Numbered from the stretch's first letter, positions 1,796 to 28,223 are shown. The stretch is DNA of 64,000 bases from an uncultured virus (IMG/VR IMGVR_UViG_2657245113_000004) (IMGVR_UViG_2657245113_000004:1-64000); one strand, 5' to 3'. Made by a program: numbers and translations. The notes: generated by a model not told the origin, from the sequence alone.

Positions 1796-2039
1796 GAATA
1801 ATTCTCTCTATTAACGATGAACTTGTACTGGAGGATGTTTTAAGTATTTCTTTTGCCAGCCGATAACTTTTAGGCTGAATATAAATCGCGCCTGGCTGTA
1901 CACGATACTCGCGCCCATGTTTTTCAGGTGCCGGGTAAATATTGCCGCCTCGCGCCCAGCGCTGGAGTGTCTGGGGGGTTGGTTGCTTGCTGCGGTAGGT
2001 TTCTTCCGCCCATTCTTCTAATGTCAGTAGTTTGGTCAT
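1770..2039 (-). CDS. xis: Excisionase
   Basis: LLTLEEWA..TLQRWARGGNIYPAPEKHGREYRV matches lambda-type Xis; overlaps the int start. Confidence 0.9.
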   Translation of the reverse strand: MTKLLTLEEWAEETYRSKQPTPQTLQRWARGGNIYPAPEKHGREYRVQPGAIYIQPKSYRLAKEILKTSSSTSSSLIERIIHGKEAKKV

Positions 2040-2159
2040 TGGTCTTTCCTCAGTAGGAAAGGGCGCAAAGATGTTACGCCCTATTATGGTCGTTTGGTCT
2101 AGAGTGGTAAGGGGCTATGTTTTAGTGATACTGCTATCGAATGCTACGGTCGGATATGG

Positions 2160-5373: not shown

Positions 5374-7159
5374 CTTCTGCCTCCAGATATTCGATAGTTT
5401 TGATTTGTGCCGAGGTGAGGGTGTATTTACTTTCGATGGTGTTGATGATTTGCGCGGCAGTTTTCTTGCCCTTGTTGATCAGCGTTGTCCAGTCAGCAAG
5501 TGCGCGTTGAAATTGTTCCGCGCTATATTCTGGTAGTGCCTGCGGCTGGCTTGGTTGCTGGCTGCCTTGGCTGTGTTCCTTACCTTCATTCACATCAAGA
5601 CTTTTACCTTCCATTTCCTCTGCTGTTGGCTGCTGACCAATTTCCGGCCAACCTTTACGCAGTGCCTGGGCTTCGGCGCAATTACCGCAGAGCATAGATA
5701 ACCCGTGGCGACGCACAACAATGACACCTGATGGTACTGTTACGCACCATACTTTGCCGGAGGTGTTTTGAGTTATGACTAATGATGATGAGTTTTTACT
5801 GAGGCCTTTCACTACTGGTGAAGTGGTTGTTTCAGAAAGAGTGAATAATGAGCACGAGCCAATATCGCTTTTTTGTACGGAAGGGCTACTTATTGAATAA
5901 CCAGCTTGAATGGCTAATAACTCAAATGCAGATATGACATTGGTATTTCGTTGATGTAAGCGGCGTACAGAGCCATTGTGAGATCCATCAAATTCTAAAA
6001 GGGAATCAACAACAATTTTTGCCTGCCGAGATGATAATGATAAAATCCATTCAGGATGAACACGCTTATCGGCCGTCATATATTTTGACACTAAGCTAAA
6101 ATCATACGTAAAACTCTTCTTATCCCTGATGGTTTTAATGATTCTTTTGCCGGTCACAGCCTCTCTGCCTGAGTCTTTTTTTACTGATACTTTGCTATGC
6201 AATCCCAAAGAAAATAAAGCTTCTATTTTATAGAGCCTAGATACGGAAACCCTGATTTGATGGTATCCAGAGTGGTAGCCATCGGCTAATAGGTACCCAA
6301 CCAAGTATAAAAGTTGATCACTAATATTCGAATCAGGACGATTTGAAACAACAGATCTCGGAATTGCCCACTTAGAACTATCTGTCGTAGCTTTTTGGTA
6401 TAGTGTTGCTGCCTCTACTTTTCCGTTGTTCGTTAACATATCGTGATTTGGTGTTACGCTAAAATTCAAGCGACTACCATTCGCTGTTACCATTGAGCCG
6501 CTATAAGGCTGCACAAATGGAATTGCAGAGGATGATTCCAAACCATTAGTTGTTACTTGTAATATTTTCCCTGTTACTTTAGAAAATAGCTGAAACCCTT
6601 CATCAGTGAGTATTTCAGTTTCATCATCAAAGCATTTGGCGAGTTGCCCATAGGGCCGTTTTTTCCACATGGCATTGGGTGCCTGAGTATCGCGGCCCGC
6701 GGTGGCATAGTTCTCCAGCCAATATTCCTTCGCACTGAACTCCACGATAGTGCCGTTAGGCATGAGTTTGCTCAGGGTGTATTTGCACCACTGAGGGAAA
6801 GTAATTTCTACTCCGTTAAAAGTTTGTGTGAGGTCAGGGCCAAATTCGGGTTCCTGTGCACCGGCATAGTTACCAGAGCGGTCTGCCTGTATGCGATAGA
6901 GCCCAACACCGGGCATCACCACATCACGCATTTCATATTTACCACTTACCGCATCTTTCACGCTCATAGGAACTAAATGAACGGGTTTCATCAGCGGATC
7001 TAACTGGCGGGCGCGGCAATAACTCACCGCCATGATGACTGAATCATCTTTAGCGCCAGGGTAAATACTGTTTTTCAGCGCGTTCCACGTTGGTTCGTCA
7101 ATATTCAACCCAACCACGGCGGGCGGGAGATTACTGGTTGTTACTGCTTGGGTGGTCAT
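5360..7159 (-). CDS. bet: Phage recombinase Bet (single-strand annealing protein), intein-containing
   Basis: YCRARQLDPLMKPVHLVP, YRIQADRSG and the conserved MWKKRPYGQLAK/CAEAQALRK motif split by a 318-aa insert. Confidence 0.92.
   Translation of the reverse strand: MTTQAVTTSNLPPAVVGLNIDEPTWNALKNSIYPGAKDDSVIMAVSYCRARQLDPLMKPVHLVPMSVKDAVSGKYEMRDVVMPGVGLYRIQADRSGNYAGAQEPEFGPDLTQTFNGVEITFPQWCKYTLSKLMPNGTIVEFSAKEYWLENYATAGRDTQAPNAMWKKRPYGQLAKCFDDETEILTDEGFQLFSKVTGKILQVTTNGLESSSAIPFVQPYSGSMVTANGSRLNFSVTPNHDMLTNNGKVEAATLYQKATTDSSKWAIPRSVVSNRPDSNISDQLLYLVGYLLADGYHSGYHQIRVSVSRLYKIEALFSLGLHSKVSVKKDSGREAVTGKRIIKTIRDKKSFTYDFSLVSKYMTADKRVHPEWILSLSSRQAKIVVDSLLEFDGSHNGSVRRLHQRNTNVISAFELLAIQAGYSISSPSVQKSDIGSCSLFTLSETTTSPVVKGLSKNSSSLVITQNTSGKVWCVTVPSGVIVVRRHGLSMLCGNCAEAQALRKGWPEIGQQPTAEEMEGKSLDVNEGKEHSQGSQQPSQPQALPEYSAEQFQRALADWTTLINKGKKTAAQIINTIESKYTLTSAQIKTIEYLEAEDANH
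5681..6634 (-). mobile_element. Intein with LAGLIDADG homing endonuclease
   Basis: Block A CFDDETEILT, block B VTPNHDML, LAGLIDADG-like LVGYLLADG and VDSLLEFDG, block F/G VWCVTVPSG..CGN followed by extein Cys+1; visibly AT-richer than the exteins. Confidence 0.92.
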
Positions 7160-7169
7160 TGGTCAGCCC

Positions 7170-7319
7170 TCAGATTTTGACAGCGATAGCCAGAAACATG
7201 AACGCGCCTAAAACACAGGCGAAGAAGAATTTCAGGCCAGATTGTTTGGGATATAGGTTGAAGTCGTCGCCGGTAACGCGGTGGCGGTATTGGAGTTTCT
7301 TGATGAATTCAGTAGTCAT
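7170..7319 (-). CDS. Small 49-aa membrane protein (below ORF-track cutoff)
   Basis: MTTEFIKKLQYRHRVTGDDFNLYPKQSGLKFFFACVLGAFMFLAIAVKI; stop abuts the bet RBS. Confidence 0.6.
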   Translation of the reverse strand: MTTEFIKKLQYRHRVTGDDFNLYPKQSGLKFFFACVLGAFMFLAIAVKI

Positions 7320-7487
7320 GGTATGCTTTCCCATGGTTGGGTTTGGTCACTCAACCACGCTGATAATAATCCTCGTGGTTATTGTTCAGTCCTCAGTAGG
7401 TTTGCGGTTGGTCCCGCACTCCTGGGATAGCCCCGGCTTAATCGCTGGGGCTTTTCTCTTTTAGGATATGGATAAGTAAGAAAAGGT

Positions 7488-8138: not shown

Positions 8139-8156
8139 TTATCGCGATTATTATTC

Positions 8157-8899: not shown

Positions 8900-9145
8900 T
8901 TAACGCACCCCGCGAGGTAACTTACTGCAACCACGCATCTTCTGGCGGGCAACTGCTGCAATCCGTTTCTCTGGATCTGCTGAAGTTCTGGGCTTGCTGG
9001 GTACGGCTGGCATATCTGGCATCGGTTTGCACCGCACCAAAACTAATACTGCTTTTTCAACTCGGTTACTTTCACGCTTTGCCAGTGCCTGGATATGGGC
9101 ATTGCGTTTTTTTGCCATACGCTTTTGACGAGATGTTGTGGCCAT
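8900..9145 (-). CDS. N-like antitermination protein
   Basis: Basic Arg-rich N-terminus (SRQKRMAKKR) and NRVEKAV; lies downstream of pL and boxA. Confidence 0.6.
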   Translation of the reverse strand: MATTSRQKRMAKKRNAHIQALAKRESNRVEKAVLVLVRCKPMPDMPAVPSKPRTSADPEKRIAAVARQKMRGCSKLPRGVR

Positions 9146-9236
9146 TGGTCAGTCCTCAGTTGGTTTATGCCGGGATATTTATCCACGCCCGGCGCGTGCT
9201 ATCCTTGCTGTCACCACAACAAGTAAGGATTTTTGT

Positions 9237-9811: not shown

Positions 9812-9826
9812 ATTTGTTAAAGAGCG
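9812..9826 (-). promoter_or_regulatory. boxA (nutL)
   Basis: Minus strand reads CGCTCTTTAACAAAT, the consensus boxA. Confidence 0.85.
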
Positions 9827-9865
9827 TACCCATTGTTTCGGGTGGTGGTTCTGTTCTTGAATCTA

Positions 9866-9918
9866 AATGTAACTATAGTTTCGGATTGCGTCAAGTGAGA
9901 TTTGATACTTTAGTTTCG
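9866..9918 (-). promoter_or_regulatory. pL promoter and OL operators
   Basis: TTGACG-17-TACATT on the minus strand (9894-9866); 14-bp near-palindromes GTAACTATAGTTTC (9869) and GATACTTTAGTTTC (9905). Confidence 0.75.
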
Positions 9919-9969
9919 GGTACTGTTGTGAAAAACCATTTAGTGTGGTTTTTCTGAAAGATGGGGGAG

Positions 9970-10585: not shown

Positions 10586-10595
10586 TGCTATCTCC

Positions 10596-11282
10596 CTATA
10601 AATTTTCCCATTTGGCTTCAACGACAACCCCAATAATACGACAGTTACCATTGATTTTTATCATTGGATACTGAGGGTTAAGCGGTTTGAGATATTTATT
10701 GCCAGCATCTTCAATATAACGTTTGAATGTAGCCTCATTATCATCAGTTAATTTAGCAATCACCAATTTACCCGAAGTGGGTTCGATATCAGGATTCACT
10801 AATACTGACATACCTTCTGGAATGGTTAGCCCCACCGGGGAGGTCATGGAGTCTCCTTTAACATCAAGCCAAAAAGCGTTTTGGCCCGCATATTTGGTGG
10901 TAGTGACCCAATCATCTATTTCGTTGAGGCTGTATGGCTCAATAGCTTCAGACCAATTCCCCGCGCTAACCCAACTAATTTTTGGGTACTCATAGGATTG
11001 TACAGGATGCGAGTCTTTATTCTCTTTCACATTCGCATCCCAATTAGCACTGGATGTGGATTGTAATTCAGGATTTCCCTTTCCCGTCTGAAGCCATTCT
11101 GGATTGCATAAAAGAGCACGGGCAATATTAAACAGCGTATCACCATTAAAATTTTTGGTCAGCCCCAGCTCAGCTTTGCTTATGGCAACCCTCGATACAC
11201 CGGCTTTCCTGGCTAATTCTTCCTGACTAAGATTCAAAGCCGCTCTACGTTCGCTAACCCTTTCAGCCAGAGTGCTTGTCAT
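10596..11282 (-). CDS. cI: CI repressor (HTH plus S24 autopeptidase)
   Basis: HTH LSQEELARKAGVSRVAISKAE, cleavage site VSAG, catalytic GDSM and ATFK; start placed at the GGAG-preceded ATG. Confidence 0.95.
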   Translation of the reverse strand: MTSTLAERVSERRAALNLSQEELARKAGVSRVAISKAELGLTKNFNGDTLFNIARALLCNPEWLQTGKGNPELQSTSSANWDANVKENKDSHPVQSYEYPKISWVSAGNWSEAIEPYSLNEIDDWVTTTKYAGQNAFWLDVKGDSMTSPVGLTIPEGMSVLVNPDIEPTSGKLVIAKLTDDNEATFKRYIEDAGNKYLKPLNPQYPMIKINGNCRIIGVVVEAKWENL

Positions 11283-11316
11283 TAAATTCTCCAAATATTG
11301 TGTATAGCTAAAATCT

Positions 11317-11392
11317 GACACCAAAGTAACACCATCTTTGGAAACTTTGTTTTCGTTATTCTCTTGCGTGAGTCCGACACTTTAGTTACGCT
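11317..11392 (+). promoter_or_regulatory. pR promoter and OR operators
   Basis: TTGCGT-17-TACGCT (11364-11392) overlapped by GACACTTTAGTTAC (11376-11389); also GAAACTTTGTTTTC at 11341; same consensus as OL. Confidence 0.72.
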
Positions 11393-11408
11393 TAGCGAGG
11401 AGGTTTCA

Positions 11409-11654
11409 ATGAAACTATATGAAATTTTGAAAACTGAAATTGGCAGCAATGCGGAAATTGGCCGCCGCTTTCCTGCAAAAGGTAAGCCACGAACCGGGCA
11501 AGCTGTTGGTAAGTGGCGTTCACAAGGTGTGCCTGAAGATATTGCCCTGTTGTGCCATTTATCTTCCTGCATCCCATACACCTATAACCCGGCCGACTAT
11601 GGCCGTAACCCGGAAAATCTCAGTCTGGTTCTGACCAAACCAGCTCATCAGTAA
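11409..11654 (+). CDS. cro: Cro-like regulator
   Basis: Divergent from cI; GAGGAGG RBS; HTH-like SNAEIGRRF..TGQAVGKW..GVP. Confidence 0.75.
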   Translation: MKLYEILKTEIGSNAEIGRRFPAKGKPRTGQAVGKWRSQGVPEDIALLCHLSSCIPYTYNPADYGRNPENLSLVLTKPAHQ

Positions 11655-11671
11655 AGATAGAGGACTGACCA

Positions 11672-11923
11672 ATGACTATTAGCCCAAAGCGTTGGCTCGC
11701 TAGCTGGAGAGCTAAACGTAAAACACAAAAAACTGCTACTCCTCTTTGCCCCCTCTCAATAAACGCAAATGAGGGGAAGAGTGTGACTTTTCAGGATCTG
11801 GATCTTCTTGGCTTATGCGTGCTGAAAGGAAAACCTCAGTGCTTGAACCATCCAGAAGGGCAGCAAAGTGAGCAAATAATTCCTGACCCTCAGGTGAAAT
11901 CTCCAATGTCGGATGATTCATGA
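11672..11923 (+). CDS. Hypothetical protein (overlaps an antisense ORF)
   Basis: Has the GAGGACTGACCAATG initiation motif; its 3' part overlaps 11736-12041. Confidence 0.35.
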   Translation: MTISPKRWLASWRAKRKTQKTATPLCPLSINANEGKSVTFQDLDLLGLCVLKGKPQCLNHPEGQQSEQIIPDPQVKSPMSDDS

Positions 11924-12041
11924 TTGCATCCAGACTTTGCTTGATGCGGAGCTTATGTTGTTCATCACTACCGGATAGCACGGTAATGGCGACAACATCG
12001 ACCAAGGCTCTAATGTAACTAAGGGAATTATCACTGGACAT
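11736..12041 (-). CDS. Hypothetical moron protein
   Basis: GGAGG RBS before MSSDNSLSYIRALVDVV; ends HLRLLRGGKEE. Confidence 0.6.
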   Translation of the reverse strand: MSSDNSLSYIRALVDVVAITVLSGSDEQHKLRIKQSLDAIMNHPTLEISPEGQELFAHFAALLDGSSTEVFLSARISQEDPDPEKSHSSPHLRLLRGGKEE

Positions 12042-12126
12042 TGCGCCTCCATGGCGGACTAAAAAAGAAGCGATTAACAGTTTATGTCCATGCGTGTAAT
12101 CACCCAAGATATTTAAGGACTGACCA

Positions 12127-12489
12127 ATGACCACAATTTATCAACCTGCCGCTATAACGGCAGGGGCTACGATAGCCTCTGACGTCCGGCGGGAGTTGCT
12201 ATCCCGGAAAAAGGTGGGAAAGAACGGTTTACCGTTCCATACCGTGCGTGAAGATCAGATTAAGACCAGGTGGACAGAAAGCGAGGCAGTGGCCATAAAA
12301 AGCACCGCCAATGCGCTGGATTCAAACCCCGCAGTAGAAACCAATGTGGCCGCAATTCGTGGTTTTTTGGCGATGTTTGCTGAAGCTCCAGAAATGCTGG
12401 CTCACGTCCATGCCGAATTAAAACTCGCCGGGCTGCCAGTACCTGAATGGCTGCCTGATCTTCCAATCAGCCAGGAGAAATCCCAATGA
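12127..12489 (+). CDS. Putative regulator in the cII position
   Basis: Position between cro and the replication genes; ribbon-helix-helix-like QIKTRWTESEAVAIK. Confidence 0.5.
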   Translation: MTTIYQPAAITAGATIASDVRRELLSRKKVGKNGLPFHTVREDQIKTRWTESEAVAIKSTANALDSNPAVETNVAAIRGFLAMFAEAPEMLAHVHAELKLAGLPVPEWLPDLPISQEKSQ

Positions 12490-12665
12490 CTAACATCACG
12501 CCAACGACCACACAATCGGTAGAATTGATTGCCAGTATTGTGGGTAAAAAACTGGCTATTGACGGGCAGGAGGCCCGCCGTATGGCTATCACAGGGGCTT
12601 TGTCTGGTATTACCCAGGCATTTTATTCCCGCCAACATAGTCCCTCTGATGCAAAGCAGCCGTAG
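12486..12665 (+). CDS. Small 59-aa hypothetical protein
   Basis: ATGA overlap with the upstream stop, GGAG RBS, ends at the O-gene RBS. Confidence 0.55.
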   Translation: MTNITPTTTQSVELIASIVGKKLAIDGQEARRMAITGALSGITQAFYSRQHSPSDAKQP

Positions 12666-12673
12666 GGGGAACT

Positions 12674-13519
12674 ATGACGCCATCTGAACTCATATACCAA
12701 TTTGGCCGGCCGATTGCTTACTACCCTGGCTTGGTTCCATATCTTGGGAGCGTAAACGCAGTCATTTTGTTCTGCCAGTTCTTCTATTGGACGGGCAAAG
12801 AAACTTCAGAGTTTGGCATTTTTAAAACTACGGAAGAGATTGAATCTGAAACAGGATTGACCTACGAGGAACAACTCACAGCTCGTAAAAAGCTCAAGCA
12901 AGCGGGGGTTTTGAAAGAAACAAATAAGCGGTTAGAACACCGTATTTACTATCAGATTGATACCGATCGGTTGGATGGAATGTTATCGCAACCTATTGAT
13001 AATTCCCCAAATGGGGAAAACCCATTTCGGGAAACGGGAAAACCCCAATTGGCGAACGAGGAAAAGCCCAAGCCGCCAGCAAGGGATTCCCTAACTGGCG
13101 GGCAAGGGATTCCCCATTTCGATCATACAGAGATTACTACAGAGATTACTACAGAGAAGCGCACACGTAAGGCGGCTAAAAATTCGGCAATAGACTTCTC
13201 CGCTTTTCCGATGGCTGTTAGCTCTGAGATTTGGGATGACTACCTAAAACACCGAAAAGCAAAACGAGCTCCAATGACTCAGACCGTGGTGAACATGCTG
13301 GGTAAGGAGTTGAGTAGAGCGGTTGCTGCTGGATGGTCTGTGGATGATGCGTTATCTGAAGCCATGGCCGCCGGTTGGCAGGGGTTGAAATTTGAATGGT
13401 TGCAGAATCGTAGTCGGCCACAAAATCAGTGCGCTGGTAACACCGGCATGAGTCGTCAGGAAGCGCTGGAGGCGCACAATGCGCGGGTTGCGGATGATTT
13501 TGTCAATGATGGGCGGTGA
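12674..13519 (+). CDS. Replication initiator (O-like)
   Basis: N-terminal wHTH, central low-complexity linker with DNA repeats, C-terminal WDDYLKHRKAKRAP..GWQG domain. Confidence 0.85.
   Translation: MTPSELIYQFGRPIAYYPGLVPYLGSVNAVILFCQFFYWTGKETSEFGIFKTTEEIESETGLTYEEQLTARKKLKQAGVLKETNKRLEHRIYYQIDTDRLDGMLSQPIDNSPNGENPFRETGKPQLANEEKPKPPARDSLTGGQGIPHFDHTEITTEITTEKRTRKAAKNSAIDFSAFPMAVSSEIWDDYLKHRKAKRAPMTQTVVNMLGKELSRAVAAGWSVDDALSEAMAAGWQGLKFEWLQNRSRPQNQCAGNTGMSRQEALEAHNARVADDFVNDGR
13002..13156 (+). repeat. Probable replication origin repeats inside the O-like gene
   Basis: TTCCCCAAATGGGGAA palindrome, AAGGGATTCCC x2, ACAGAGATTACT tandem repeat. Confidence 0.55.
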
Positions 13520-14295
13520 GTATGCAGGGTTTAGATGATAAACGTGAATTTGCAGAAATCATGAAAGCCACGCTGGCGATATACGGCAAAGATGCATCAA
13601 AAGCCGTGCTGGAACTCTATTGGAATGCGTTGCTGCCCAACGATATCGACACAGTGCGCAAGGCATTCAGTAACTGGCTGACCGATCCGGATCAGGGCCG
13701 TTTCTCGCCAAAGCCTGCCGATATTATCCGCAATATTCAACATATTGCCGGTAAGCCCGATTGGCTTTCAGCCAATGAGGCGTGGGCATTGGCATTACCG
13801 GCGCAAGATGAGGCTAACACCGTGGTCTGGACACATGAAATTGCCCAGGCATGGAATATTGCTCAGCCCATTATGCGGGAAGGTGACAAGGTCGGTGCGC
13901 GAATGGCTTTCATTGCTGCCTATGAGCGATTGACTAAGGCAGCACAGGGAACAGGCCGAGAGCCTGAGTGGTCAGTGTCGGAAGGATGGGACAAAGAAAC
14001 GGTAAAACGCACGGTGGAACAGGCGGTGACTACCGGACTTCTGCCCAAACCTAAAGCTGAGAAATATCAGTTGTTGCTACCAGGCAAAACCCAGTTAGAC
14101 GAAGGCGTACCCACAAAAATACGTCATTTTTTAGACGAGTTGAAAGACAAAATTAAACAGGATCAGGAGGAAAGGGCAAGAAGATGGCGCGATGAAAGCA
14201 TCAAGCTACAAGAGTCTCTGGACAGTAAATACCGAGAGTCATTGCAGCAGACCGCCGACCACGGTTTGCATAATAATCAAATTACTGAGGACTGA
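13516..14295 (+). CDS. Helicase loader / P-like replication protein
   Basis: Follows O; YWNAL, FSPKPADII, SANEAW and ARMAFIAAYER motifs. Confidence 0.7.
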   Translation: MSMQGLDDKREFAEIMKATLAIYGKDASKAVLELYWNALLPNDIDTVRKAFSNWLTDPDQGRFSPKPADIIRNIQHIAGKPDWLSANEAWALALPAQDEANTVVWTHEIAQAWNIAQPIMREGDKVGARMAFIAAYERLTKAAQGTGREPEWSVSEGWDKETVKRTVEQAVTTGLLPKPKAEKYQLLLPGKTQLDEGVPTKIRHFLDELKDKIKQDQEERARRWRDESIKLQESLDSKYRESLQQTADHGLHNNQITED

Positions 14296-14298
14296 CCA

Positions 14299-15435
14299 AT
14301 GAGCATTAATTTCAAGAACGTGTTGATTTACAAACTATCCCGCGATGTCTCTTTCGCTGATTTGGAACAGCAAATGGCGCAGTTCGCATTCACACCCTGT
14401 GGTAGCCAGGATATGGCGAAAACCGGTTGGATATCGCCCATGGGTAACGAAAGCGCCACGCTAGCGCATGTGGCTAACCAACAAATCCTGATCACATTGC
14501 AGTGTGAAAAAAAGGATTTACCTGCGCCGGTTATCGCCCGTGAGCTGGCGAGTAAAGTTGAGCGTTTGGAGCAAGAGCAACACCGTAAACTGAAAAAAAC
14601 AGAAAAAGACTCGCTGAAAGATGAAGTTATCCAGACTCTGCTGCCACGGGCCTTTAGCAAATACTCTACAACATCCATCTGGATTAACGCAGGGGCTGGG
14701 TTAATCATCATTGATGCCGCCAGTGCGCGGAAAGCTGAAAATGCATTGGCATTGCTGCGCAAAACTATGGGTTCTCTGCCTGTGGTTCCTCTGACACTCA
14801 ATACCCCGATTGAACTGACGCTGACCGAATGGTTGCGTTCAGGTGCTGCGCCTGCTGGTTTTGTGCTTCAGGAAGAAGCCGAGTTAAAAGCCGTTTTGGA
14901 GCAGGGCGGTATTCTGCGCAGTAAGCATCAGGATTTAGTCAGCGATGAGATCCGCGGTCATATCGCCGCCGGTAAGCTGGTTACCAAGTTGGCTTTGGAG
15001 TGGCGGGAACGTATTAGTTTCATGTTGTCCGACGATGGCAGCCTGAAGAGAGTGAAATACAGTGCCACGCTTCTGGAGCAAAACGACGATATTGATCGTG
15101 AGGATTATGCCCAGCGATTTGATGCCGATTTCATTCTGATGACGGGTGAATTAGCTGCCTTAATTGCAGATTTGGTTACCGCATTAGGCGGAGAGGCAAC
15201 CAGCAGTTCATGGGTCGATTTGGACGGCGTAGAGCGAGACGATGATGATCGCTATCCCGAGGCAGTGAAGTTCATCAAGACGAGAGGTAAAGCCTCAATC
15301 TCTGGGCTACAGCGTGAACTCCGCATTGGCTATAACCGAGCCGCCTGGCTGCTGGAAAGAATGCAGGCGGAAGGCATTGTGTCACAACCCACGCCAGACG
15401 GAACCCGCCAAGTGCTGCTCGGGGAGGGTGCGTAA
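14299..15435 (+). CDS. rdgC: RdgC fused to a C-terminal FtsK gamma domain
   Basis: [32 protein letters not shown]; tail [31 protein letters not shown]. Confidence 0.92.
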
Positions 15436-15782
15436 TGGTGATCAAGCCACAGGTACCCAACGCCGAAAGGGATGGCATTAACCACGATATCAGGTCGATG
15501 CGTCTGGCTGGCCGGTTAAACGAGGCCAACAGCCAGCTAAATCGGGTGATCGCCGCTGCCAGTGGGGCTGACTGGCGAACCCTGCGCGATCTCGAAAAAT
15601 TATTATCCCAGATGTTCCCCGGTGAAGGTGATACCCAGACCGCCATAAGCGCACGCCTGCGTGAGATCAATCCTGTCCGTCATGGGCTGGTGAAACAGGT
15701 CAGAACTGTCCGCAATGAGGATAGCGGTAAGCGTGTTTGGTTTTATCGCCTGGTTCCTACCACGCAAGGAGGCATGCAATGA
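15435..15782 (+). CDS. Hypothetical protein, winged-helix-like
   Basis: WRTLRDLE..TQTAISARLRE..WFYRL. Confidence 0.65.
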   Translation: MVIKPQVPNAERDGINHDIRSMRLAGRLNEANSQLNRVIAAASGADWRTLRDLEKLLSQMFPGEGDTQTAISARLREINPVRHGLVKQVRTVRNEDSGKRVWFYRLVPTTQGGMQ

Positions 15783-16705
15783 GTTACCAGATTTTTATCG
15801 GTGATTGCATAGACTCAATGCGCAAAATGGCAGATCAATCCGTTCATAGCTGCATTACCAGCCCGCCGTATTATGGGCTGCGTGATTATGGTGTTGAAGG
15901 GCAGATTGGTTTAGAGGAAAGCCCAGCGGCGTTTATTCAACGGCTTGTCGCGGTGTTTCGTGAGGTTCGCCGTGTTCTTCGTGATGATGGCACTTTATGG
16001 GTAAACATGGGGGATAGTTGGGGCAAAGGGAAGCAATTGAATGGTATGCCATGGCGTTTTGCCTTTGCGTTACAAAATGACGGCTGGATCCTTCGCCAAG
16101 ACATTATCTGGCACAAATCCAATCCTATGCCAGAAAGCGTGCGTGACCGCTGTACCAAGGCCCACGAATATATATTTCTGTTGAGTAAGTCGAAAAGCTA
16201 TTACTTCGATCATGAGGCAATTAGAGAACCATCTGTCTACAGCGGTAAAAATACCGGCGTCGGCTTTGGGCATGGCATGGATAAGAGTGACAGAAATCGC
16301 GGCAGGATATCTGCCCGCGATAACTTCAAGCGGGAAGACAGTAAGCGAGCGGTAGTTATACCGGGGCAAAATGTGGGTACTCATCGTGCTGATCGTAAAG
16401 ATACCGTCTCAGATGGTATGCGGGCAAAACGCAACGTTTGGACTGTGGCCACTCGGGGCTACAAAGAAGCCCATTTTGCTACTTTCCCGCCAGCACTAAT
16501 AGAGCCTTGTGTTTTAGCTGGTTGTCCGGCAGGTGGTGTGGTTCTTGATCCATTCGGTGGGAGTGGTACCACTGCTGGCGTCGCTATCGGCAGTGGTCGT
16601 AAAGCTATTCTTTGTGAATTGAACCCAGCGTACGCTGATTTGGTTCCTACTCGTATTGAAAGTATTTTATCTGCGTACCCAATCAAGCCGGGGAATACAG
16701 CATGA
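15779..16705 (+). CDS. Beta-class N4C/N6A DNA methyltransferase
   Basis: ITSPPY catalytic motif precedes HFATFP and VLDPFGGSGTT; start ATG overlaps the upstream stop. Confidence 0.92.
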   Translation: MSYQIFIGDCIDSMRKMADQSVHSCITSPPYYGLRDYGVEGQIGLEESPAAFIQRLVAVFREVRRVLRDDGTLWVNMGDSWGKGKQLNGMPWRFAFALQNDGWILRQDIIWHKSNPMPESVRDRCTKAHEYIFLLSKSKSYYFDHEAIREPSVYSGKNTGVGFGHGMDKSDRNRGRISARDNFKREDSKRAVVIPGQNVGTHRADRKDTVSDGMRAKRNVWTVATRGYKEAHFATFPPALIEPCVLAGCPAGGVVLDPFGGSGTTAGVAIGSGRKAILCELNPAYADLVPTRIESILSAYPIKPGNTA

Positions 16706-18249
16706 GATATGGATCAGTGTGCAGTGGTATTGAAGCCGCAAGCCTTGCGTGGGAGCCCTTGGGCTGGACGCCCATATGGTTTAGTGAAATCGAACCATTC
16801 CCATCAGCAGTTCTGGCACATCGCTGGCCAACAGTAACCAACCTTGGTGACATGACTAAGATTGCCGAGTTGGTCCGAGCCGGAAGTGTGGAAGCCCCAG
16901 ATATTCTGGTAGGCGGCACTCCTTGTCAGGCGTTCAGCGTTGCTGGCCTGCGTAATGGTCTGGCAGATGCCCGTGGCCAGTTAACTCTTTCATATGTGGA
17001 ATTAGCAGATGCAATCGACGACACGCGCCGCGAACGTGGCGAAAAAGAATCCATCATCGTCTGGGAAAACGTGCCGGGCGTCCTCAGCAGCAAAGACAAC
17101 GCATTCGGGTGTTTCCTTGCAGCACTTGCCGGAGAAGATGAGCCACTTGTCCCATCAGGGAAAAAATGGACGAACGCTGGTTATGTGTCTGGACCCAAAA
17201 GAGCAATCGCATGGATCATCAAAGACGCCCAATATTTCGGAGTGGCCCAACAACGCCGTCGGGTCCTGCTTATCGCAAGTGCTCGAAATGACCTTAATCC
17301 CGCAAAAGTACTATTTGAGCTTGAAAGCTACTCAGGGTCGGTATCGCCGGATCTTATTAGGAGCAAACGCTGCACCACAACTATTGATGGAAGCTCTCTG
17401 TATCGTTTCCGAAGAACAGACAGCTATATAGCCGACGGTTTAAGTAGCACCTTATCTGCAAGAGATTATAAAGATGCCCGAGATTTGGTTGTTACAGGAG
17501 ATGGCCGAGTAAGAAAGCTTCTTCCGGTTGAGTATGAAAGGCTTAATGGATTTTCTGATAACCATACTTTAATTAATTATAAGGGCAAGTTGGTTACAGA
17601 TGCTCCTCGATATAAAGCAATTGGTAATTCAATGGCTGTCAACGTCATGCACTGGCTAGGTCAGCGGATTGCAGATGTGTTACCGCCACTGCTTTACGAT
17701 GTTATTTATGCCGATCCGCCTTGGCAGTATGGAAGTAAGCCAAATAGAGGGGTTCTGCTGGATTACTCAACAATGTCAGTTGCAGAACTATGCGGCATGC
17801 AGGTTAAAAGCATCGCCAGCCAAAATGCTGCGCTGTTCATGTGGGTAACGGGCGCCATGGTGTCGGAGGCACTAACTGTCGGTGCTGCTTGGGGTTTTAA
17901 ATTCATCCGTATTGATAAGGTATGGGAAAAGAAGAAACACACTGGAAGTCGGCACGGTGTTGTGGGGCCATGGGGAATGAATGACGCTGAATTTTTACTG
18001 TTGTTCACGCGGGGTAAAGTCTGCGGCAACCAAACAGAGCGCAACCAGTACACCGTCTATGAAGAGAAATATACTGGTATCCATTCTGGTAAGCCTCATT
18101 TCTTTCGTGAACAGATCGAGCGCCGATTCAAAAATGCTCGTCGTATAGAACTATTTGCGCGCACTTCATCGCCCGGCTGGGACGTTTGGGGTGATCAGGC
18201 ACCAAATGCCGCCAGACTATCCCTCATAGAGCCGGAGGATACTTTATGA
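16702..18249 (+). CDS. C5 cytosine methyltransferase fused to an MT-A70-family adenine methyltransferase
   Basis: GSVCSGIEA, GGTPCQ, WENVPG, AIGNSM; then IYADPPWQY, LFMWV, HSGKP, IELFAR, GWDVWGDQ. Confidence 0.9.
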   Translation: MRYGSVCSGIEAASLAWEPLGWTPIWFSEIEPFPSAVLAHRWPTVTNLGDMTKIAELVRAGSVEAPDILVGGTPCQAFSVAGLRNGLADARGQLTLSYVELADAIDDTRRERGEKESIIVWENVPGVLSSKDNAFGCFLAALAGEDEPLVPSGKKWTNAGYVSGPKRAIAWIIKDAQYFGVAQQRRRVLLIASARNDLNPAKVLFELESYSGSVSPDLIRSKRCTTTIDGSSLYRFRRTDSYIADGLSSTLSARDYKDARDLVVTGDGRVRKLLPVEYERLNGFSDNHTLINYKGKLVTDAPRYKAIGNSMAVNVMHWLGQRIADVLPPLLYDVIYADPPWQYGSKPNRGVLLDYSTMSVAELCGMQVKSIASQNAALFMWVTGAMVSEALTVGAAWGFKFIRIDKVWEKKKHTGSRHGVVGPWGMNDAEFLLLFTRGKVCGNQTERNQYTVYEEKYTGIHSGKPHFFREQIERRFKNARRIELFARTSSPGWDVWGDQAPNAARLSLIEPEDTL

Positions 18250-18893
18250 CAACAGCACCGCGAACTAAGTCCCCGAGAAAGAAAAAGACTGAGGTGCTGG
18301 GCGTCCTGTTGCCTGGTGGTGGAATCAAGTATGCCACTGATCATGATCGCGAAACGATGAAAGGGGTGCCTGTGGGCACTCCAATTTCAATGAGTCCAAT
18401 TGGCGACCGGCGCAACCTGAAGCATCACCGTAAATTCTGGAAATTGCTGGAATTGGGTTTCTCTTATTGGGTGCCGGATTGGACCTTTGTCAGTGCGCCA
18501 GAGGAATGGATCGCCCATGAGGTGGCTAAAGCCGTGGGCAGTGCCGCAGGAGATCCAGAGCTTTATGAAAAGGTGACCAAATCCATCGCGCAAGCGGTAT
18601 TAGACCGAGTAATCAGGCAGCGCCAGAAAAGGTTTGATGGGGAGGCGGTAAAGACGGATATGGCTTATTTCAACCACGTTATGATCAAAGCCGGGTTCTA
18701 TGACCTGATGCCAAATCCTGAAGGTGGCACATTGAAGCAGCGTTGGAGTATCGCGTTTGTGAATATGGATCAGGGGGCTTTTGACCGGATTTATCAAGGC
18801 GTGGCCGGTGTTATCTGGAATGAGACATTAGGCCAGCACTTTGATAACGAGTATAAAATGGAACAGGCAGTTAACCGGCTGCTGGAGTATTGA
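18246..18893 (+). CDS. DUF1367-like nin-region protein
   Basis: RNLKHHRKFWKLLELGFSYW and SIAFVNMDQ. Confidence 0.75.
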   Translation: MTTAPRTKSPRKKKTEVLGVLLPGGGIKYATDHDRETMKGVPVGTPISMSPIGDRRNLKHHRKFWKLLELGFSYWVPDWTFVSAPEEWIAHEVAKAVGSAAGDPELYEKVTKSIAQAVLDRVIRQRQKRFDGEAVKTDMAYFNHVMIKAGFYDLMPNPEGGTLKQRWSIAFVNMDQGAFDRIYQGVAGVIWNETLGQHFDNEYKMEQAVNRLLEY

Positions 18894-18894
18894 T

Positions 18895-19224
18895 ATGAAA
18901 TCTCCGGCATTTAGAAGTAAAGCCCTGCGCGATTCTGCGCGGGGCCAATGCTGCACGCTCCAGATCCCCGGTATCTGTAACAGCAATCCAGAAACAACGG
19001 TACTGTGCCATTTGCCCAGTTCCACCCACGGCATGGGGTATAAGTCAGATGACTACTGGGCCGTTTTTGGGTGCAACTGCTGCCATGATGTTATTGATGG
19101 ACGGCTGCCATATGAATGGCAGCCCGGAGAGCGTGAGGAAACGATATTACAGGCATTGCATGCAACTCTTAGGATTTGGCTGGAGGAATCTCTGGTAACC
19201 GCTAAAGGGGGCCTGTTTGCTTAA
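18895..19224 (+). CDS. YbcO / DUF1364 putative nuclease
   Basis: LRDSARGQCCTLQIPGICNSNPETTVLCH, CNCCHDVIDGR. Confidence 0.85.
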   Translation: MKSPAFRSKALRDSARGQCCTLQIPGICNSNPETTVLCHLPSSTHGMGYKSDDYWAVFGCNCCHDVIDGRLPYEWQPGEREETILQALHATLRIWLEESLVTAKGGLFA

Positions 19225-19672
19225 TAGCATAGATGCCATTGGCATTATCGGAACAGCAGCAAAGCTGGAAGTGCGTAACGGGAAAGTTCGTAAAGTTAAC
19301 CACCAGGCGGAAACTGAGGAACAGGCCGCGCTTATTGCGTGGGCAGATAAAACTGTTATCAATGGTATTTGTATCGGGGACTATCTGATCCATATACCCA
19401 ACGAGGGAAAGCGTGGGCCAAAGGCGGCAAGGGATGCTAAGCGACTTGGGTTGAGGAAAGGCGTGCCAGATTTGTTTCTGGCGCTGCCGCGTGGCGGCTA
19501 TGCGGGGTTGTGGATAGAGATGAAGGTAAAGTCCCGATTAACATCTGCTGAGCAGTTTTGCTGGCTGAGAAAGCTGGATAATGTTGGTTACGTTGCAACT
19601 ACTTGTTTTTCTTTTGGTCAGGCTAAAGATACAGTAGTAAAATACCTTAACAAAAACAACATAACAGGATGA
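19217..19672 (+). CDS. VRR-NUC domain nuclease
   Basis: HIPNEG, GVPDLFL, LWIEMK, Q..W. Confidence 0.88.
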   Translation: MLNSIDAIGIIGTAAKLEVRNGKVRKVNHQAETEEQAALIAWADKTVINGICIGDYLIHIPNEGKRGPKAARDAKRLGLRKGVPDLFLALPRGGYAGLWIEMKVKSRLTSAEQFCWLRKLDNVGYVATTCFSFGQAKDTVVKYLNKNNITG

Positions 19673-19678
19673 TGCGCT

Positions 19679-20524
19679 ATGTTTTATCATGTTCACATAG
19701 AGTCAGCGGATAAAAATACCAAAGGAGGAGTTAAGCGTAACTTTGAGTATGATTTTAATTCAGAGGAAATGGTTATTGATAATATATTAATACCATATTT
19801 GACTGGAGATACCTTTCAGTTTGATGGGTATTTTTTAGATAAAGGAAGAGTTAATAGAATAAAAATAGTAGAAACGGAAAATACAGCTACTCAAGAAAAA
19901 GACTCAAGAGTTAATAGAATGAAATTAGCTGGTGGTATGATTGTATCATCGGCAAAATCTTCAGTAATTTTTGGTGATTCCACACGGAAAGATATCAGTA
20001 GGGAATTATTAGAGAAAGCAAGAAGCAAGTGTTCAGATATTAAACCTCAAGAAATCGACGTGAAACATAAGGTTTCTGATAAAAATAAAGTGTTTATAGT
20101 GCATGGACAAGATGATTTAGCAAGGCTTGAAGTATCTTCATTTCTAAGCAAATTAGGTCTTGAGCCGATAGTTTTGCATGAACAAGCAAGCTCTGGTAGT
20201 ACCATAATTGAGAAAATTGAGAAGTATACTGATGTTGGATTTGGTGTGGTGCTTTATACACCATGTGATACTGGAGCTAAACAAACAGTTGAACCAGAAT
20301 ATAGACCAAGAGCTAGACAGAATGTGGTATTTGAACATGGGTATTTAATTGGCAAGTTATCCAGAAAGAATGTTTGTGCGCTGGTTAAAGGAGATGTTGA
20401 AACTCCTAACGATATTAGTGGTGTTGTTTATGTACCTCAAGACGCCGCAGGTGCTTGGAAGTTAATGCTAGCTAAAGAATTAAAAAGCTCGGGCTACGAT
20501 ATAGATATGAACAAAGCGCTTTAG
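19679..20524 (+). CDS. TIR-like (predicted nucleotide-binding) domain protein
   Basis: VFIVHGQD, LHEQ, TIIEKIE, LYTPCD, RARQNVVFEHG, PNDISGVVY; AT-rich insert. Confidence 0.88.
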   Translation: MFYHVHIESADKNTKGGVKRNFEYDFNSEEMVIDNILIPYLTGDTFQFDGYFLDKGRVNRIKIVETENTATQEKDSRVNRMKLAGGMIVSSAKSSVIFGDSTRKDISRELLEKARSKCSDIKPQEIDVKHKVSDKNKVFIVHGQDDLARLEVSSFLSKLGLEPIVLHEQASSGSTIIEKIEKYTDVGFGVVLYTPCDTGAKQTVEPEYRPRARQNVVFEHGYLIGKLSRKNVCALVKGDVETPNDISGVVYVPQDAAGAWKLMLAKELKSSGYDIDMNKAL

Positions 20525-20611
20525 TATTTCATAAATTGCAATAATTAAACTTGAATTGCATTATATGGGATAGTGTTTATCATTGGTTTAGACTCAAAAG
20601 GGGACTGACCA

Positions 20612-21418
20612 ATGACCACTGCTATTGAACAACTTATCAAAATGCACGATCCGCGCTGTGTCAGCATAGAATCACTGAACATTGGCAGAGGTCGTGCCGT
20701 TCTGACCAAAGACCAGATACTAGGGGCTTTTGCTACCTGCCAGCATAGTCACCCCGTCGGATTCGATATATTAATGACCAAATACCGCAATGACTACCAA
20801 GCTGAACGACGCTTACGGGCCGCAATTAGTGTGTGGTTGCATAAGCGACCGCATCCCGGGCGTGCCATTGCTGCCTGTCAGTTGGCGCTGAATATGGTAT
20901 TGGATAGAAACCTTCCGGCGCAGGTAGAGCAAATTGCAACTTTGCTGCGGCGTTACGGATCCCGTACCGGTATCACCAGAAAAGTCGTTGATGGGCTACA
21001 GCAGCAAATCAAATTACTGGAAAGAGATAAAGTCCAGGCACTTGATGATGGCGCTATTGAATTACTGGCAAATGAAATAAATACCCTTCAGTCTAAAATC
21101 AAAACAGAACGCGGAGCACTCCGGGTATGGGCCAATCATCAGGCGGCGATAACGCAAGTCTGCCCCCGTTGTCACGGTGCCGGTAAAACCCTGCGTCCTC
21201 ATCCAGAAACATGCAACGAATGCGGTGGTGGTGGACGTATACCGCCAACAATGGAACATCTGCGCAAATCCATGGGCATCATAGGGGCTGAGATACCCGC
21301 CGGGGAGTGGGCTGCGCAATATGTGCCGCTGGTGAAGGAATGCATGCACTGGTTGTACGTTGAAGAAAGCGACGCGTCTCAGACCTTATCTGAATTAACT
21401 AAAAATGAAATGGTTTGA
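20612..21418 (+). CDS. Late antiterminator Q-like protein
   Basis: CPRCHGAG..CNECGGGG zinc finger; lies between the nin region and pR'/lysis genes. Confidence 0.8.
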   Translation: MTTAIEQLIKMHDPRCVSIESLNIGRGRAVLTKDQILGAFATCQHSHPVGFDILMTKYRNDYQAERRLRAAISVWLHKRPHPGRAIAACQLALNMVLDRNLPAQVEQIATLLRRYGSRTGITRKVVDGLQQQIKLLERDKVQALDDGAIELLANEINTLQSKIKTERGALRVWANHQAAITQVCPRCHGAGKTLRPHPETCNECGGGGRIPPTMEHLRKSMGIIGAEIPAGEWAAQYVPLVKECMHWLYVEESDASQTLSELTKNEMV

Positions 21419-21426
21419 GAGACAGA

Positions 21427-21830
21427 TGGCAAAAAATAATTATGCTGAAATATCTGTCAGCGTCGCAAAATATTTTGCTGGCGTGAATAACCACGAATTA
21501 GCTAAAAAATGGGATCAATCACTCGACGGTAATGGAAAGTCATGCCCAAGAATTACTTTTCTAGGCTTATGTGAGGACGGCTGGGTAAAGGGAATAAAAC
21601 GAGGTAATTATATTTTACGTCGAAGAAAATATCCTAATAACAAAGATTATGCCGTCGAGGGAGCAAAAATAGTCTTAGCTAATCCCAGTAAAGAATATTT
21701 AGCGTCTCAATTGTGGGCTGAGGTTAAAAGAGCATTGCCAGATGGGGCGGAGAATCACAATCAGCAGATGACGGTGGTTATTGCTTTGATGAATAATGAC
21801 CTTTTGCAATACCCTCCATTGACTGAATGA
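21427..21830 (+). CDS. DUF6979-like protein
   Basis: KSCPRITFLGLCEDG, NKDYA, LW, HNQQMTVVIAL; family recalled from motif; start may be 21405. Confidence 0.6.
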
Positions 21831-21860
21831 TTAATACGCGCTAAATTTCCGAAAGATGCC
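21819..21860 (+). promoter_or_regulatory. Late promoter pR' copy 1
   Basis: TTGACT-17-TAAATT (same hexamers as lambda pR') followed by a -10-like pause element AAAGAT. Confidence 0.85.
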
Positions 21861-21957
21861 GGAGTATGCTTAAAAGCTGCTCTGGTTTTTTATTGGTCAG
21901 TTCTGGTCAGTCCTGACTACCCCAAAAGCCTGCATGGTTCGCCCAGCAGGCTTTTTT
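21859..21957 (+). terminator. Two tandem intrinsic terminators after pR' copy 1
   Basis: CCGGAGTA..TGCTCTGG-T6 and AAAAGCCTGC..GCAGGCTTTTTT. Confidence 0.8.
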
Positions 21958-21983
21958 ATTTCCCCAAACCGGGGAGGTGGAGC

Positions 21984-22220
21984 ATGAAAATGCCTGAAAA
22001 AACATCATTTGCCTCATATCTCACAGGGGCAGTGCTGGTATTGGTTGGGAAGCTGGGTAACCTATTAAAAGATTTAACCCTGAATGATTGGGCGATTGTC
22101 ATCGGTATTATCATCGGGGTGGCTACCTTTTTTCTGAACGCCTACTGGCAGCGCCGGCAGACAAAAGCTATCGAAAAAGCAGCGCGAGAGGGGTACACAA
22201 TAATCAGGGGGGATAAATAA
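21984..22220 (+). CDS. Class II holin (pinholin-like) with dual start
   Basis: MKM start, two TM helices, LNDWAIVIGI, basic C-terminus. Confidence 0.85.
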   Translation: MKMPEKTSFASYLTGAVLVLVGKLGNLLKDLTLNDWAIVIGIIIGVATFFLNAYWQRRQTKAIEKAAREGYTIIRGDK

Positions 22221-22708
22221 TGGCAGTGTCCTCCCCTTTAATGAAGAAAATATACGGTGTAGTTGCTGGTGGTGCTATGGCGATCGCAATTGCCCTTGTG
22301 GGCGGCAGCGATGGATTGGAAGGGCGTGAGTATATGCCTTATCGTGATGTGGTTGGCGTGCTAACGGTCTGCGATGGTCACACTGGCAAAGATATCATCC
22401 CCAGCAAACGCTACAGCGATGCTGAATGTGATGCTTTGCTACACAAAGATCTGATCCCCGTATTTGCCGCCATCGACCGCATCGTTAACGTTCCAATGTC
22501 CGATTTCCGTAAAGCTGCCCTGGCATCATTTGGCTACAACGTTGGTATTACTGCCATGACCAATTCCACCATGGTGAAAAAACTCAACCGTGGCGATACT
22601 TCTGGCGCGTGCGATGAGCTGCGTAGATGGATTAAGGCTGGTGGCAAGGTCTGGAAGGGGTTAGTCAATCGCCGTGAAGTCGAGCGCGAATTATGTCTGA
22701 TGCCATAA
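22220..22708 (+). CDS. SAR endolysin (lysozyme)
   Basis: Gly/Ala-rich SAR helix, EG..YRDVVGVLTVCDGHTG, GLVNRREVE. Confidence 0.93.
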   Translation: MAVSSPLMKKIYGVVAGGAMAIAIALVGGSDGLEGREYMPYRDVVGVLTVCDGHTGKDIIPSKRYSDAECDALLHKDLIPVFAAIDRIVNVPMSDFRKAALASFGYNVGITAMTNSTMVKKLNRGDTSGACDELRRWIKAGGKVWKGLVNRREVERELCLMP

Positions 22709-28132: not shown

Positions 28133-28135
28133 CTA

Positions 28136-28223
28136 TTGCATGCCTGCAAAATACGCGCTAAATTTCCGAAAGATGCACTACATTGCACTGAATTAAGCCT
28201 CGCCTAACCGCGGGGCTTTTTGC
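28136..28223 (+). promoter_or_regulatory. Late promoter pR'-like copy 2 plus terminator
   Basis: TTGCAT-17-TAAATT-TCCG-AAAGAT, then AAGCCTCGC..GCGGGGCTTTTT. Confidence 0.75.

Follow-up and report, generated by a model that had tools for sequence, protein, structure and literature searches.

A late-promoter leader in a family of lambdoid prophages carries a candidate multi-target anti-ribosome-site RNA complementary to a start-site tag of early genes

The phage antisense RNAs C4 of P1 and P7 and CI of P4 use short seeds against a ribosome-binding region and thereby control the lytic programme. They are cut from the operon that they control and act on one transcript. The RegA protein of phage T4 represses translation of many early messages by occupying their initiation regions.

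Leader RNAs of late promoters are made by many lambdoid prophages, and the passages cited here report a function for StxS only and none for lambda 6S RNA (PMC7547250; bioRxiv 10.1101/2024.10.31.621285). StxS is bound by Hfq, gives rise to a stable 3' fragment by processing and acts by pairing to repress stx1, a message borne by the phage (PMC7547250). Lambda 6S RNA is likewise associated with Hfq and is present in both lysogenic and lytic cells (bioRxiv 10.1101/2024.10.31.621285). In both cases, Q overrides the intrinsic terminator of the leader.

A further relevant element is the start-associated sequence (SAS) of Cluster K phages, a 13-bp asymmetric, phage-private repeat with a Shine-Dalgarno core, which lies a few bases from start codons in non-structural genes of many different families and has no copy in the host genome; in the sections cited, its function is given as unknown, RNA or protein is left open as the ligand and no antisense partner is proposed (PMC3203893). 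In the genome of phage Anaya, we counted 16 forward copies of the SAS and 1 reversed, the latter in the 385-bp gene-free gap gp96-gp97.

The stretch analysed here (the window; 64,000 nt of an uncultured virus, IMG/VR IMGVR_UViG_2657245113_000004) contains a prophage whose flanking direct repeats, 586-637 and 59046-59097, overlap the SdsR/RyeB-SraC/RyeA locus at its 3' end. Its gene order is lambdoid:

686-2039, minus strand: integrase and excisionase
1770-2039, minus strand: excisionase-like gene with a tag variant at its start
5360-7159, minus strand: single-strand annealing protein gene with a tagged start
8900-9145, minus strand: N-position gene (81 aa) with a tagged start
10596-11324, minus strand: LexA-type repressor, facing the cro-like gene
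start at 11410: cro-like gene
20612-21418, plus strand: Q-like antiterminator gene (phrog_127, E 1.4e-13)
ATG at 21984: holin gene, 3' of terminator t2

Besides the single-strand annealing protein, the prophage encodes a RecE-like exonuclease. An O-like replication gene and an rdgC-like gene are found among the early and middle genes, methyltransferases precede the Q-like gene, and Q is followed by holin, endolysin and spanin genes and then by terminase, portal, head and tail genes. The 81-aa N-position gene gave no match in a family search and is assigned to N by position only. For Q, the nearest named genome was a Yersinia similis assembly (90% identity), and more distant Q relatives occurred in Serratia, Brenneria, Pectobacterium and Symbiopectobacterium. 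No close relative was found by DNA among 50,697 records of cultured phages with 21400-22300 as query, and the sole match of the Q protein in the 50,697 phage records was a remote one in a Pasteurella phage (27% identity).

The late promoter, which is consensus-like and whose activity is a sequence prediction, adjoins the Q homologue on its downstream side. The promoter and the leader behind it consist of the following elements:

21819..21847, plus strand: late promoter copy 1 (-35 hexamer TTGACT at 21819-21824, 17-bp spacer, -10 hexamer TAAATT at 21842-21847)
21848..21859, plus strand: initial transcribed region TCCGAAAGATGC, common to four late promoters
21858..21893, plus strand: terminator t1 (hairpin 21858-21885, -13.4 kcal/mol, then TTTTTTAT)
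21892..21901, plus strand: half-seed 1, ATTGGTCAGT
21894..21919, plus strand: predicted 7-bp hairpin, UGGUCAG (21894-21900) with CUGACUA (21913-21919)
21904..21914, plus strand: half-seed 2, TGGTCAGTCCT
21927..21957, plus strand: terminator t2 (hairpin, -13.5 kcal/mol, and a T run, 7 of 8 T)

TTGACT and TAAATT are presumably the same two hexamers as in lambda pR'. The 3' end of the spacer (ACGCGC) and the -10 hexamer are kept in all four late promoters of the prophage: the -10 hexamer and the first transcribed bases (CGCGCTAAATTnCCnAAAGATGC) recur at 28135, 36750 and 46599, and each of these copies is then followed by one or two terminators, so that the phage appears to have four Q-type late units. 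At copy 1, transcription would start near 21854, and AAAGAT in the initial transcribed region is a putative -10-like pause element. The t1 hairpin is followed by 7 T among the next 8 bases, the last bases of this U tract overlap the first bases of the seed, and as an intrinsic terminator t1 is comparable to t2 (-13.4 vs -13.5 kcal/mol). Both terminators were missed by a rule-based scan, as their loops or bulges are outside its rules, and both are seen upon folding. A 5-codon ORF starting from the ATG of AAAGATGC was dismissed, because many relatives have ATA there.

As in StxS and lambda 6S RNA, the promoter is placed just 3' of Q and a short leader is ended by an intrinsic terminator before the lysis genes; unlike in these two RNAs, the seed lies behind the first terminator. 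No homology to StxS or lambda 6S RNA was found when 21780-22000 was compared with 5,426 complete E. coli genomes, where it had no match; the comparison of 21400-22300 with the 50,697 phage records and the Rfam search of the leader likewise revealed no relation to them.

The two half-seeds are the reverse complements of the overlapping halves of one 13-base tag, AGGACTGACCAAT, just as a first-pass annotation of this DNA had claimed. Half-seed 1 is complementary to ACTGACCAAT, which comprises the spacer and the AU of the start codon, and, when the register is shifted, to UGACCA within the start codon and the second codon. Half-seed 2 is complementary to AGGACTGACCA, comprising the Shine-Dalgarno sequence and the spacer. 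Seen as tag matches on the minus strand, the half-seeds read AGAACTGACCAAT (one mismatch) and AGGACTGACCAGA (two mismatches), and the copies are 10 bp, i.e. one helical turn, apart. Half-seed 2 arose by a 10-base duplication that is seen only in Yersinia-type leaders.

The leader had been described as a 5' hairpin, an unpaired middle and a 3' terminator. The 3' terminator was recovered and so was the 5' hairpin, but the latter is itself terminator t1. The middle did not turn out to be unpaired in the window: the predicted 7-bp hairpin sequesters half-seed 1, while its loop displays most of half-seed 2, and folding of the leader gave mean unpaired probabilities of 0.33 and 0.57, respectively. 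The annotation was right in stating that the other three pR'-like leaders (28135, 36750 and 46599) lack the seed insert. Since these three leaders terminate without it, the seed seems unnecessary for Q action or termination.

The 13-mer AGGACTGACCAAT was found in the window four times exactly and, outside the leader, three times with one mismatch and once with two:

2038..2050, minus strand: tag variant AGGAAAGACCAAT (two mismatches), excisionase-like gene; duplex -20.3 kcal/mol, rank 12 of 191
7158..7170, minus strand: tag AGGGCTGACCAAT (one mismatch), single-strand annealing protein gene
7381..7393, minus strand: relic tag AGGACTGAACAAT (one mismatch), AATAAC, no start codon and no ORF
9144..9156, minus strand: exact tag, 81-aa N-position gene
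11661..11673, plus strand: exact tag, 83-aa ORF directly 3' of the cro-like gene
12116..12128, plus strand: exact tag, cII-position gene (120 aa)
14288..14300, plus strand: exact tag, rdgC-like recombination-associated gene (378 aa)
20601..20613, plus strand: tag GGGACTGACCAAT (one mismatch), Q-like antiterminator gene

Thus, the earlier observation that the motif spans the Shine-Dalgarno sequence to the ATG of early and middle genes holds for seven ORFs, to which one relic is added; AGGACTGACCAAT(G) covers this stretch at the xis-like, annealing protein, N-like, orf83, cII-position, rdgC-like and Q-like genes. In seven of the eight sense copies, the final AT together with the next G forms the ATG of the ORF, and the orientation of the tag follows the sense of the gene on both operon arms without exception. 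In most copies, a TAA or TGA stop adjoins the tag or overlaps it, and in many the sequence runs on as ATGACCA. At the site that corresponds to the relic at 7381, relatives have a tagged mini-ORF of 6-8 codons. The cro-like gene and the holin gene have ordinary start regions without the tag. All copies with at most two mismatches are located at 2038-21914, and none was found in the late region of the window. When up to three mismatches were allowed, 24 copies were observed vs 15.4 expected, a total that was reached in 4 of 100 shuffles and, taken alone, is not significant; the core CTGACCA was enriched (21 observed vs 6.5 expected, reached in 0 of 100 shuffles). As judged from the sequence, the complementarity of seed and tag is real and far beyond chance.

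Duplex energies were calculated for the 23-base seed and 191 ORF starts. The six best-matching tagged starts took ranks 1-6 with -27.1 to -23.7 kcal/mol, followed by -22.1 kcal/mol for the next best and a median of -10.8 kcal/mol; the gap to the best untagged ORF start is small (-23.7 vs -22.1 kcal/mol). At four of these six starts, both half-seeds take part in the predicted duplex: half-seed 2 pairs with AGGACUGACCA, while the partner of half-seed 1 is UGACCA in the start codon and the codon after it, so that the duplication of the seed would mirror an internal repeat of the target. The 23-base seed replaced the whole 40-base inter-terminator stretch as query in this ranking; the longer query was non-discriminating, with background ORF starts reaching -26.9 kcal/mol, because A-rich leaders pair with its U run. 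For a typed consensus tag, the duplex with the single-copy seed of relatives came to -25.3 kcal/mol, compared with -6.9 kcal/mol for the last 13 bases of 16S rRNA (from L167).

A scan of IMG/VR for the promoter core yielded 71 loci, namely 18 lysis-type leaders with the duplicated seed as in the window, 7 lysis-type leaders with the single copy TTTTTTATTGGTCAGTCCT (the exact 13-mer complement), 45 late leaders of other types from the same phages and 1 unrelated locus. The seed was present in all 25 lysis-type leaders. Among viral Q loci found via the Q protein, 43 of 46 had a seed-bearing leader; two of the other three had unrelated DNA after Q and one was rearranged. Such a leader was also present at 9 of 11 bacterial genome loci from Yersinia, Serratia, Brenneria, Pectobacterium and Symbiopectobacterium. 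One of the two remaining loci (L149, with no leader found in the 2.5 kb downstream) is on a contig that starts 604 bases upstream of Q, and at the other (L158) only the first 101 Q residues were matched. The leader of relatives carries the exact 13-mer complement ATTGGTCAGTCCT, which in the window is represented by two overlapping halves of 10 and 11 bases. The single-copy form was found in Serratia, Brenneria, Pectobacterium and Symbiopectobacterium and the duplicated form accompanies the Yersinia-type Q, with Q amino-acid identity among relatives dropping to 53%.

Conservation, expressed as the mean share of the commonest base, was determined in an alignment of 53 leaders, 40 of them unique. 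It was 0.47-0.49 around the -35 hexamer, 0.97 at 21837-21847, 0.945 in the t1 hairpin, 0.981 in the t2 hairpin, 0.996 in the U tract and 0.997 in half-seed 1, where 9 of 10 columns were invariant in the 40 unique leaders. The seed is the best-conserved leader segment across five genera, and its flanks randomise. The complete list of seed changes consists of T to A at the last base in two leaders and, in one leader, C to T, with which a G-U pair would be retained. Compensatory changes were found in the stems of both t1 and t2. The loops of the two hairpins are highly conserved too, so part of the leader conservation may serve another purpose. The single-copy seed, which is preceded by a 5' hairpin and its U-rich tail and followed by a terminator, had an unpaired probability of 0.79-0.80 in two of three folded leaders and of 0.58 in L137. 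The features of Hfq-type sRNAs, i.e. a single-stranded seed, a U-rich stretch and a U-tailed terminator, are predicted in the single-copy relatives and partly in the window.

Seed and tag co-occurred in 10 of 10 relatives examined whole or as whole genomes. Their co-conservation, set as a test by the first-pass annotation, was observed in these relatives, and within the leader the seed varied least. All five single-copy viral records (whole) contained 6-7 copies of the tag at no more than one mismatch, one of which was the reversed leader copy, and none of the five contained the backwards-read control pattern. The reversed copy was found exactly once per prophage and at a constant place in 10 of 10. 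In five whole host genomes (24.6 Mb, both strands) there were 28 exact 13-mers, comprising 24 tags and four reversed leader copies, and all 28 fall inside prophages; the 17 one-mismatch matches outside prophages in these genomes correspond to the level of the control pattern.

The window and four early regions together contained 36 tagged ORFs of at least 40 aa, which group into 12 protein families. The cII-position, rdgC-like and N-position genes were tagged in five of five phages, Q and excisionase in four of five. N-position proteins are 38-71% identical among the phages, with the tag kept, and at the recombination-gene position unrelated genes stand behind an identical tag in different phages. 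The sequence upstream of the tag varies freely among phages, and some Q genes retain the tag though the ATG has shifted by one or two bases. As the tag is kept despite these shifts and the upstream divergence, selection acts on it as a whole and goes further than a Shine-Dalgarno sequence and start codon would demand. We regard the tag as phage-private, specific to the early class and surviving gene replacement.

In several respects the tag resembles the SAS: it is a 13-bp asymmetric element with a Shine-Dalgarno core in one orientation (7 of 8 copies end in ATG; also in four relatives), it is limited to non-structural genes (12 families in five phages), and the five whole host genomes have no exact copies outside the prophages. 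It differs from the SAS in its 13-mer consensus, in the host phylum and in the phage type, and its reversed copy is placed in a late-promoter leader. We take the tag to be an analogue of the SAS, not a member. In full-text searches, no description of the tag, the seed or the phage family was found; the matching papers listed lack the 13-mers as DNA or RNA strings and hold an 11-mer only, with animal or human subjects by title.

Covariation of seed and motif in related prophages had been proposed as a further check. No compensatory covariation was detected in the relatives compared, because both partners are nearly invariant. Pair-breaking changes in the centre of the tag were G7 to A in the cII-position gene of a Pectobacterium phage and also in an 84-86-aa gene, and T6 to C in a Brenneria N-position gene; the leaders of these phages had no matching change. 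Single-base tag variants comprised about 7 wobble-compatible transitions, 2 pair-breaking transitions and 3 transversions. A wobble bias as a sign of RNA pairing was rejected, since it equals the neutral expectation: 8 of 10 unconstrained tag positions are A or C, and the variant spectrum is as neutrality predicts.

RNA sequencing data were also inspected. In one RNA library, the leader was spanned by just one contig, 4,229 bases long and from a relative; it could derive from DNA and gives no sign of a discrete RNA. A size-fractionated RNA run contained nothing, two raw-read RNA runs with the same species label had 0 reads, and no run contained half of the sampled words.

Altogether, we consider seed and tag a family-wide feature and, with good support, a candidate multi-target anti-ribosome-site RNA system, in which base pairing by the leader RNA probably turns early genes off. 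Our main reading, with a probability of roughly 0.55, is that the seed serves mainly as a Q-gated, trans-acting anti-ribosome-site RNA. The seed between the tandem terminators would pair as RNA with the private tag AGGACUGACCAAU(G) on early and middle genes, with the N-position gene, the cII-position gene, the recombination genes, excisionase and Q as putative targets. A duplex over both Shine-Dalgarno sequence and AUG should keep 30S subunits from binding and, as is usual for such duplexes, would expose the message to decay. Because t1 is a competent terminator upstream of the seed, bulk seed RNA would be produced only when Q-modified polymerase reads through. Translation of early genes would be shut off in a Q-gated manner when the phage switches to late transcription, with negative feedback on Q included. 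Transcripts that pass t1 independently of Q and end at t2, with a length of about 105 nt here and of about 85 nt in relatives, would be a minority and would weakly dampen leaky expression of early genes in the lysogen. We infer the transcription start, the RNA species, in vivo pairing, repression and timing.

The first-pass annotation had offered two options for the timing, reinforcement of lysogeny or shut-off upon Q read-through. The position of t1 upstream of the seed would make the ~105-nt RNA a minority product without Q and therefore favours shut-off upon Q read-through over a constitutive lysogenic sRNA; a counterpoint is that in the presence of Q the seed lies within a long mRNA rather than a discrete sRNA, and the partial sequestration of the duplicated seed in the window also speaks against the antisense reading. 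The multi-target antisense reading of the annotation was partly supported, by complementarity, leader context and conservation, and found no backing from covariation or variant bias.

The locus would represent a candidate variation on two known kinds of regulation, pR'-leader sRNAs and antisense control of ribosome-binding sites. Unlike C4 and CI, the RNA would come from the late promoter and act on many messages; searches against Rfam gave no C4, neither for the leader with E up to 10 (five chance-level matches, none near threshold) nor for the whole window at gathering score (only SraC/RyeA and SdsR/RyeB). The proposed logic is like that of RegA, with the differences that the factor would be an RNA and that the targets bear an exact shared tag. 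Unlike StxS, which targets stx1 and host rpoS, the seed has its matching tag on 5-9 early genes of the phage itself.

Conservation of the tag beyond Shine-Dalgarno and AUG needs is expected for any specific ligand, and the tag could instead be a protein-binding site, with the reversed leader copy as a by-product or a DNA-level site. We consider this unlikely. The protein might be an RNA-acting translational regulator of phage or host, similar to T4 RegA, or a DNA-binding one similar to the stoperator-type systems of Cluster A mycobacteriophages. The spacing of the two leader half-copies by one helical turn (10 bp) would suit such a ligand, and for start-associated sequences the Cluster K authors, in the part cited, leave RNA or protein open (PMC3203893). 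However, single-copy relatives have one reversed site, not two, and the complement would be no target for a protein that binds RNA. A DNA-binding protein would leave unexplained the fixed register of the tag, with a stop codon upstream, the ATG downstream and the sense of the gene, in 7 of 8 copies. Contrary to a stoperator-type arrangement, the repeats at the pL and pR promoters (9872, 9907, 11376), with ACTTTAGTTTCG, ACTATAGTTTCGG and ACTTTAGTTACG as putative repressor operators near the cI/cro and pL promoters, are unlike the tag.

Slightly less likely still is that the tag is a standardised intercistronic cassette of stop, Shine-Dalgarno sequence, spacer and ATG that persists through good translational coupling and as a short homology for module exchange, the leader copy being a functionless scar of such an exchange. 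The stop codon that abuts or overlaps most tags fits a cassette, as do the non-homologous genes that share a map position behind the same tag and the RecE-like and annealing proteins encoded by the phage. In a 14-mer scan of IMG/VR, the matches listed were mostly single chance matches; among them, many unrelated viral contigs have the 14-mer a single time, at an apparent gene start, which makes it a plausible generic start region. A scar would decay, however, whereas no part of the leader is better conserved in five genera than the reversed copy, whose non-coding neighbours are randomised and which is present exactly once per prophage at a fixed place in 10 of 10; moreover, inverted homology within a genome would favour harmful inversions.

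That the leader is a StxS-like sRNA whose true targets are host messages or whose role is in termination, with the tag match being anti-Shine-Dalgarno-like, is very unlikely: StxS and lambda 6S RNA do bind Hfq, StxS acts on host rpoS according to the passages cited (PMC7547250; bioRxiv 10.1101/2024.10.31.621285), and the seed ends in UCCU and loosely resembles the 16S rRNA 3' end (11 of 14 aligned positions), but this mimicry is unsupported (shuffle fraction 0.056 with UCCU fixed, not significant), no exact 13-mer target lies outside prophages in 24.6 Mb of five host genomes, a generic anti-Shine-Dalgarno does not explain a perfect 13-base match to a tag repeated 5-9 times per phage, and the other three late leaders terminate without the seed.

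In a further-reaching reading, a phage would tag one temporal class of its genes at the ribosome-binding site and shut off the whole class by one short RNA of the next class, and in this prophage family the anti-tag would be gated by Q antitermination. Tag and anti-tag are identical from Yersinia to Pectobacterium, so the leader RNA of a resident prophage could silence early genes of superinfecting relatives, which would amount to repressor-independent exclusion. The single reversed SAS of Cluster K could be the same device, which would explain a puzzle open since 2011. That private start-site tags with one transcribed anti-tag constitute a general, undescribed phage strategy is possible but, taken as a whole and with exclusion and the SAS included, rather doubtful. 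Start-associated repeats, so far without a mechanism, would gain a concrete testable function, and the system, compact with a tag and an anti-tag of 13 bases each, could find further use as an orthogonal translational off-switch. For the prophage family itself, an RNA layer would be added to the antitermination cascade, by which the late switch would feed back on the early programme, including Q.

In the window, the -10 element and initial transcribed region of the late promoter were found in four copies, which head the lysis/packaging, the head, the tail and the giant-protein gene blocks, respectively:

21818-21859, first late promoter copy
28135-28176, second late promoter copy
36750-36791, third late promoter copy
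46599-46640, fourth late promoter copy

Behind each of these copies one to two intrinsic terminators are located. Lambda has a single Q-dependent late unit, whereas the phage studied here apparently has four separate ones; the four-unit arrangement was present in relatives as well. Two further reading frames adjoin these promoters:

21405-21830, 141-aa ORF of unknown function, between the Q-like antiterminator gene and the late promoter
46866-55181, 2,771-aa ORF downstream of the fourth late promoter

Among relatives, the spacing between Q and the promoter ranged from 835 to 1,614 bases, thus the slot holding the 141-aa ORF is variable. The 2,771-aa ORF contains three 125-base tandem-like repeats (48969-49486) and its C-terminal part is methyltransferase-like.

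When the early region was analyzed, two elements stood out:

9866-9894, minus strand, leftward promoter with -35 and -10 elements
11625-11643, hairpin CTGGTT-CTGACCA-AACCAG at the 3' end of the cro-like gene

Downstream of the leftward promoter, the leader carries CGCTCTTTAACAA (9813-9825, minus strand), which resembles a boxA element. Such a putative boxA agrees with a role of the 81-aa tagged gene at the N position in N-type antitermination; for this gene a family search gave no match. The 7-base loop of the hairpin equals CTGACCA, the core heptamer of the tag (the 13-base Shine-Dalgarno-to-start-codon sequence of early genes), and is the exact complement of UGGUCAG in the leader hairpin loop of the same phage. 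In type-B relatives the hairpin sequence is kept, about 20 bases 5' of the cII-position tag. This element may represent a hairpin of the nutR type or an additional target. Relatives (L159-L166) also possess tagged mini-ORFs, 6-8 codons long, roughly 200 bases 5' of the recombination gene; at 7381-7393 the window retains a tag matching that of these mini-ORFs, with the start codon lost.

The prophage boundaries are marked by direct repeats of 52 bases, 85% identical:

586-637, left repeat
59046-59097, right repeat

The left repeat overlaps the 3' end of SdsR/RyeB, so the phage inserts into the end of this sRNA gene and restores it.

Mycobacterium phage Anaya carries a single reversed copy of its start-associated sequence, the 13-bp repeat at gene starts of Cluster K phages:

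39871-39883 of L301 (59870-59882 of the record), reversed start-associated sequence in a 385-bp gene-free gap

Upstream of it, a terminator-like hairpin follows gp96. This copy is transcribed in the orientation that would yield an anti-tag RNA, and it may be a counterpart of the leader seed in the window phage.
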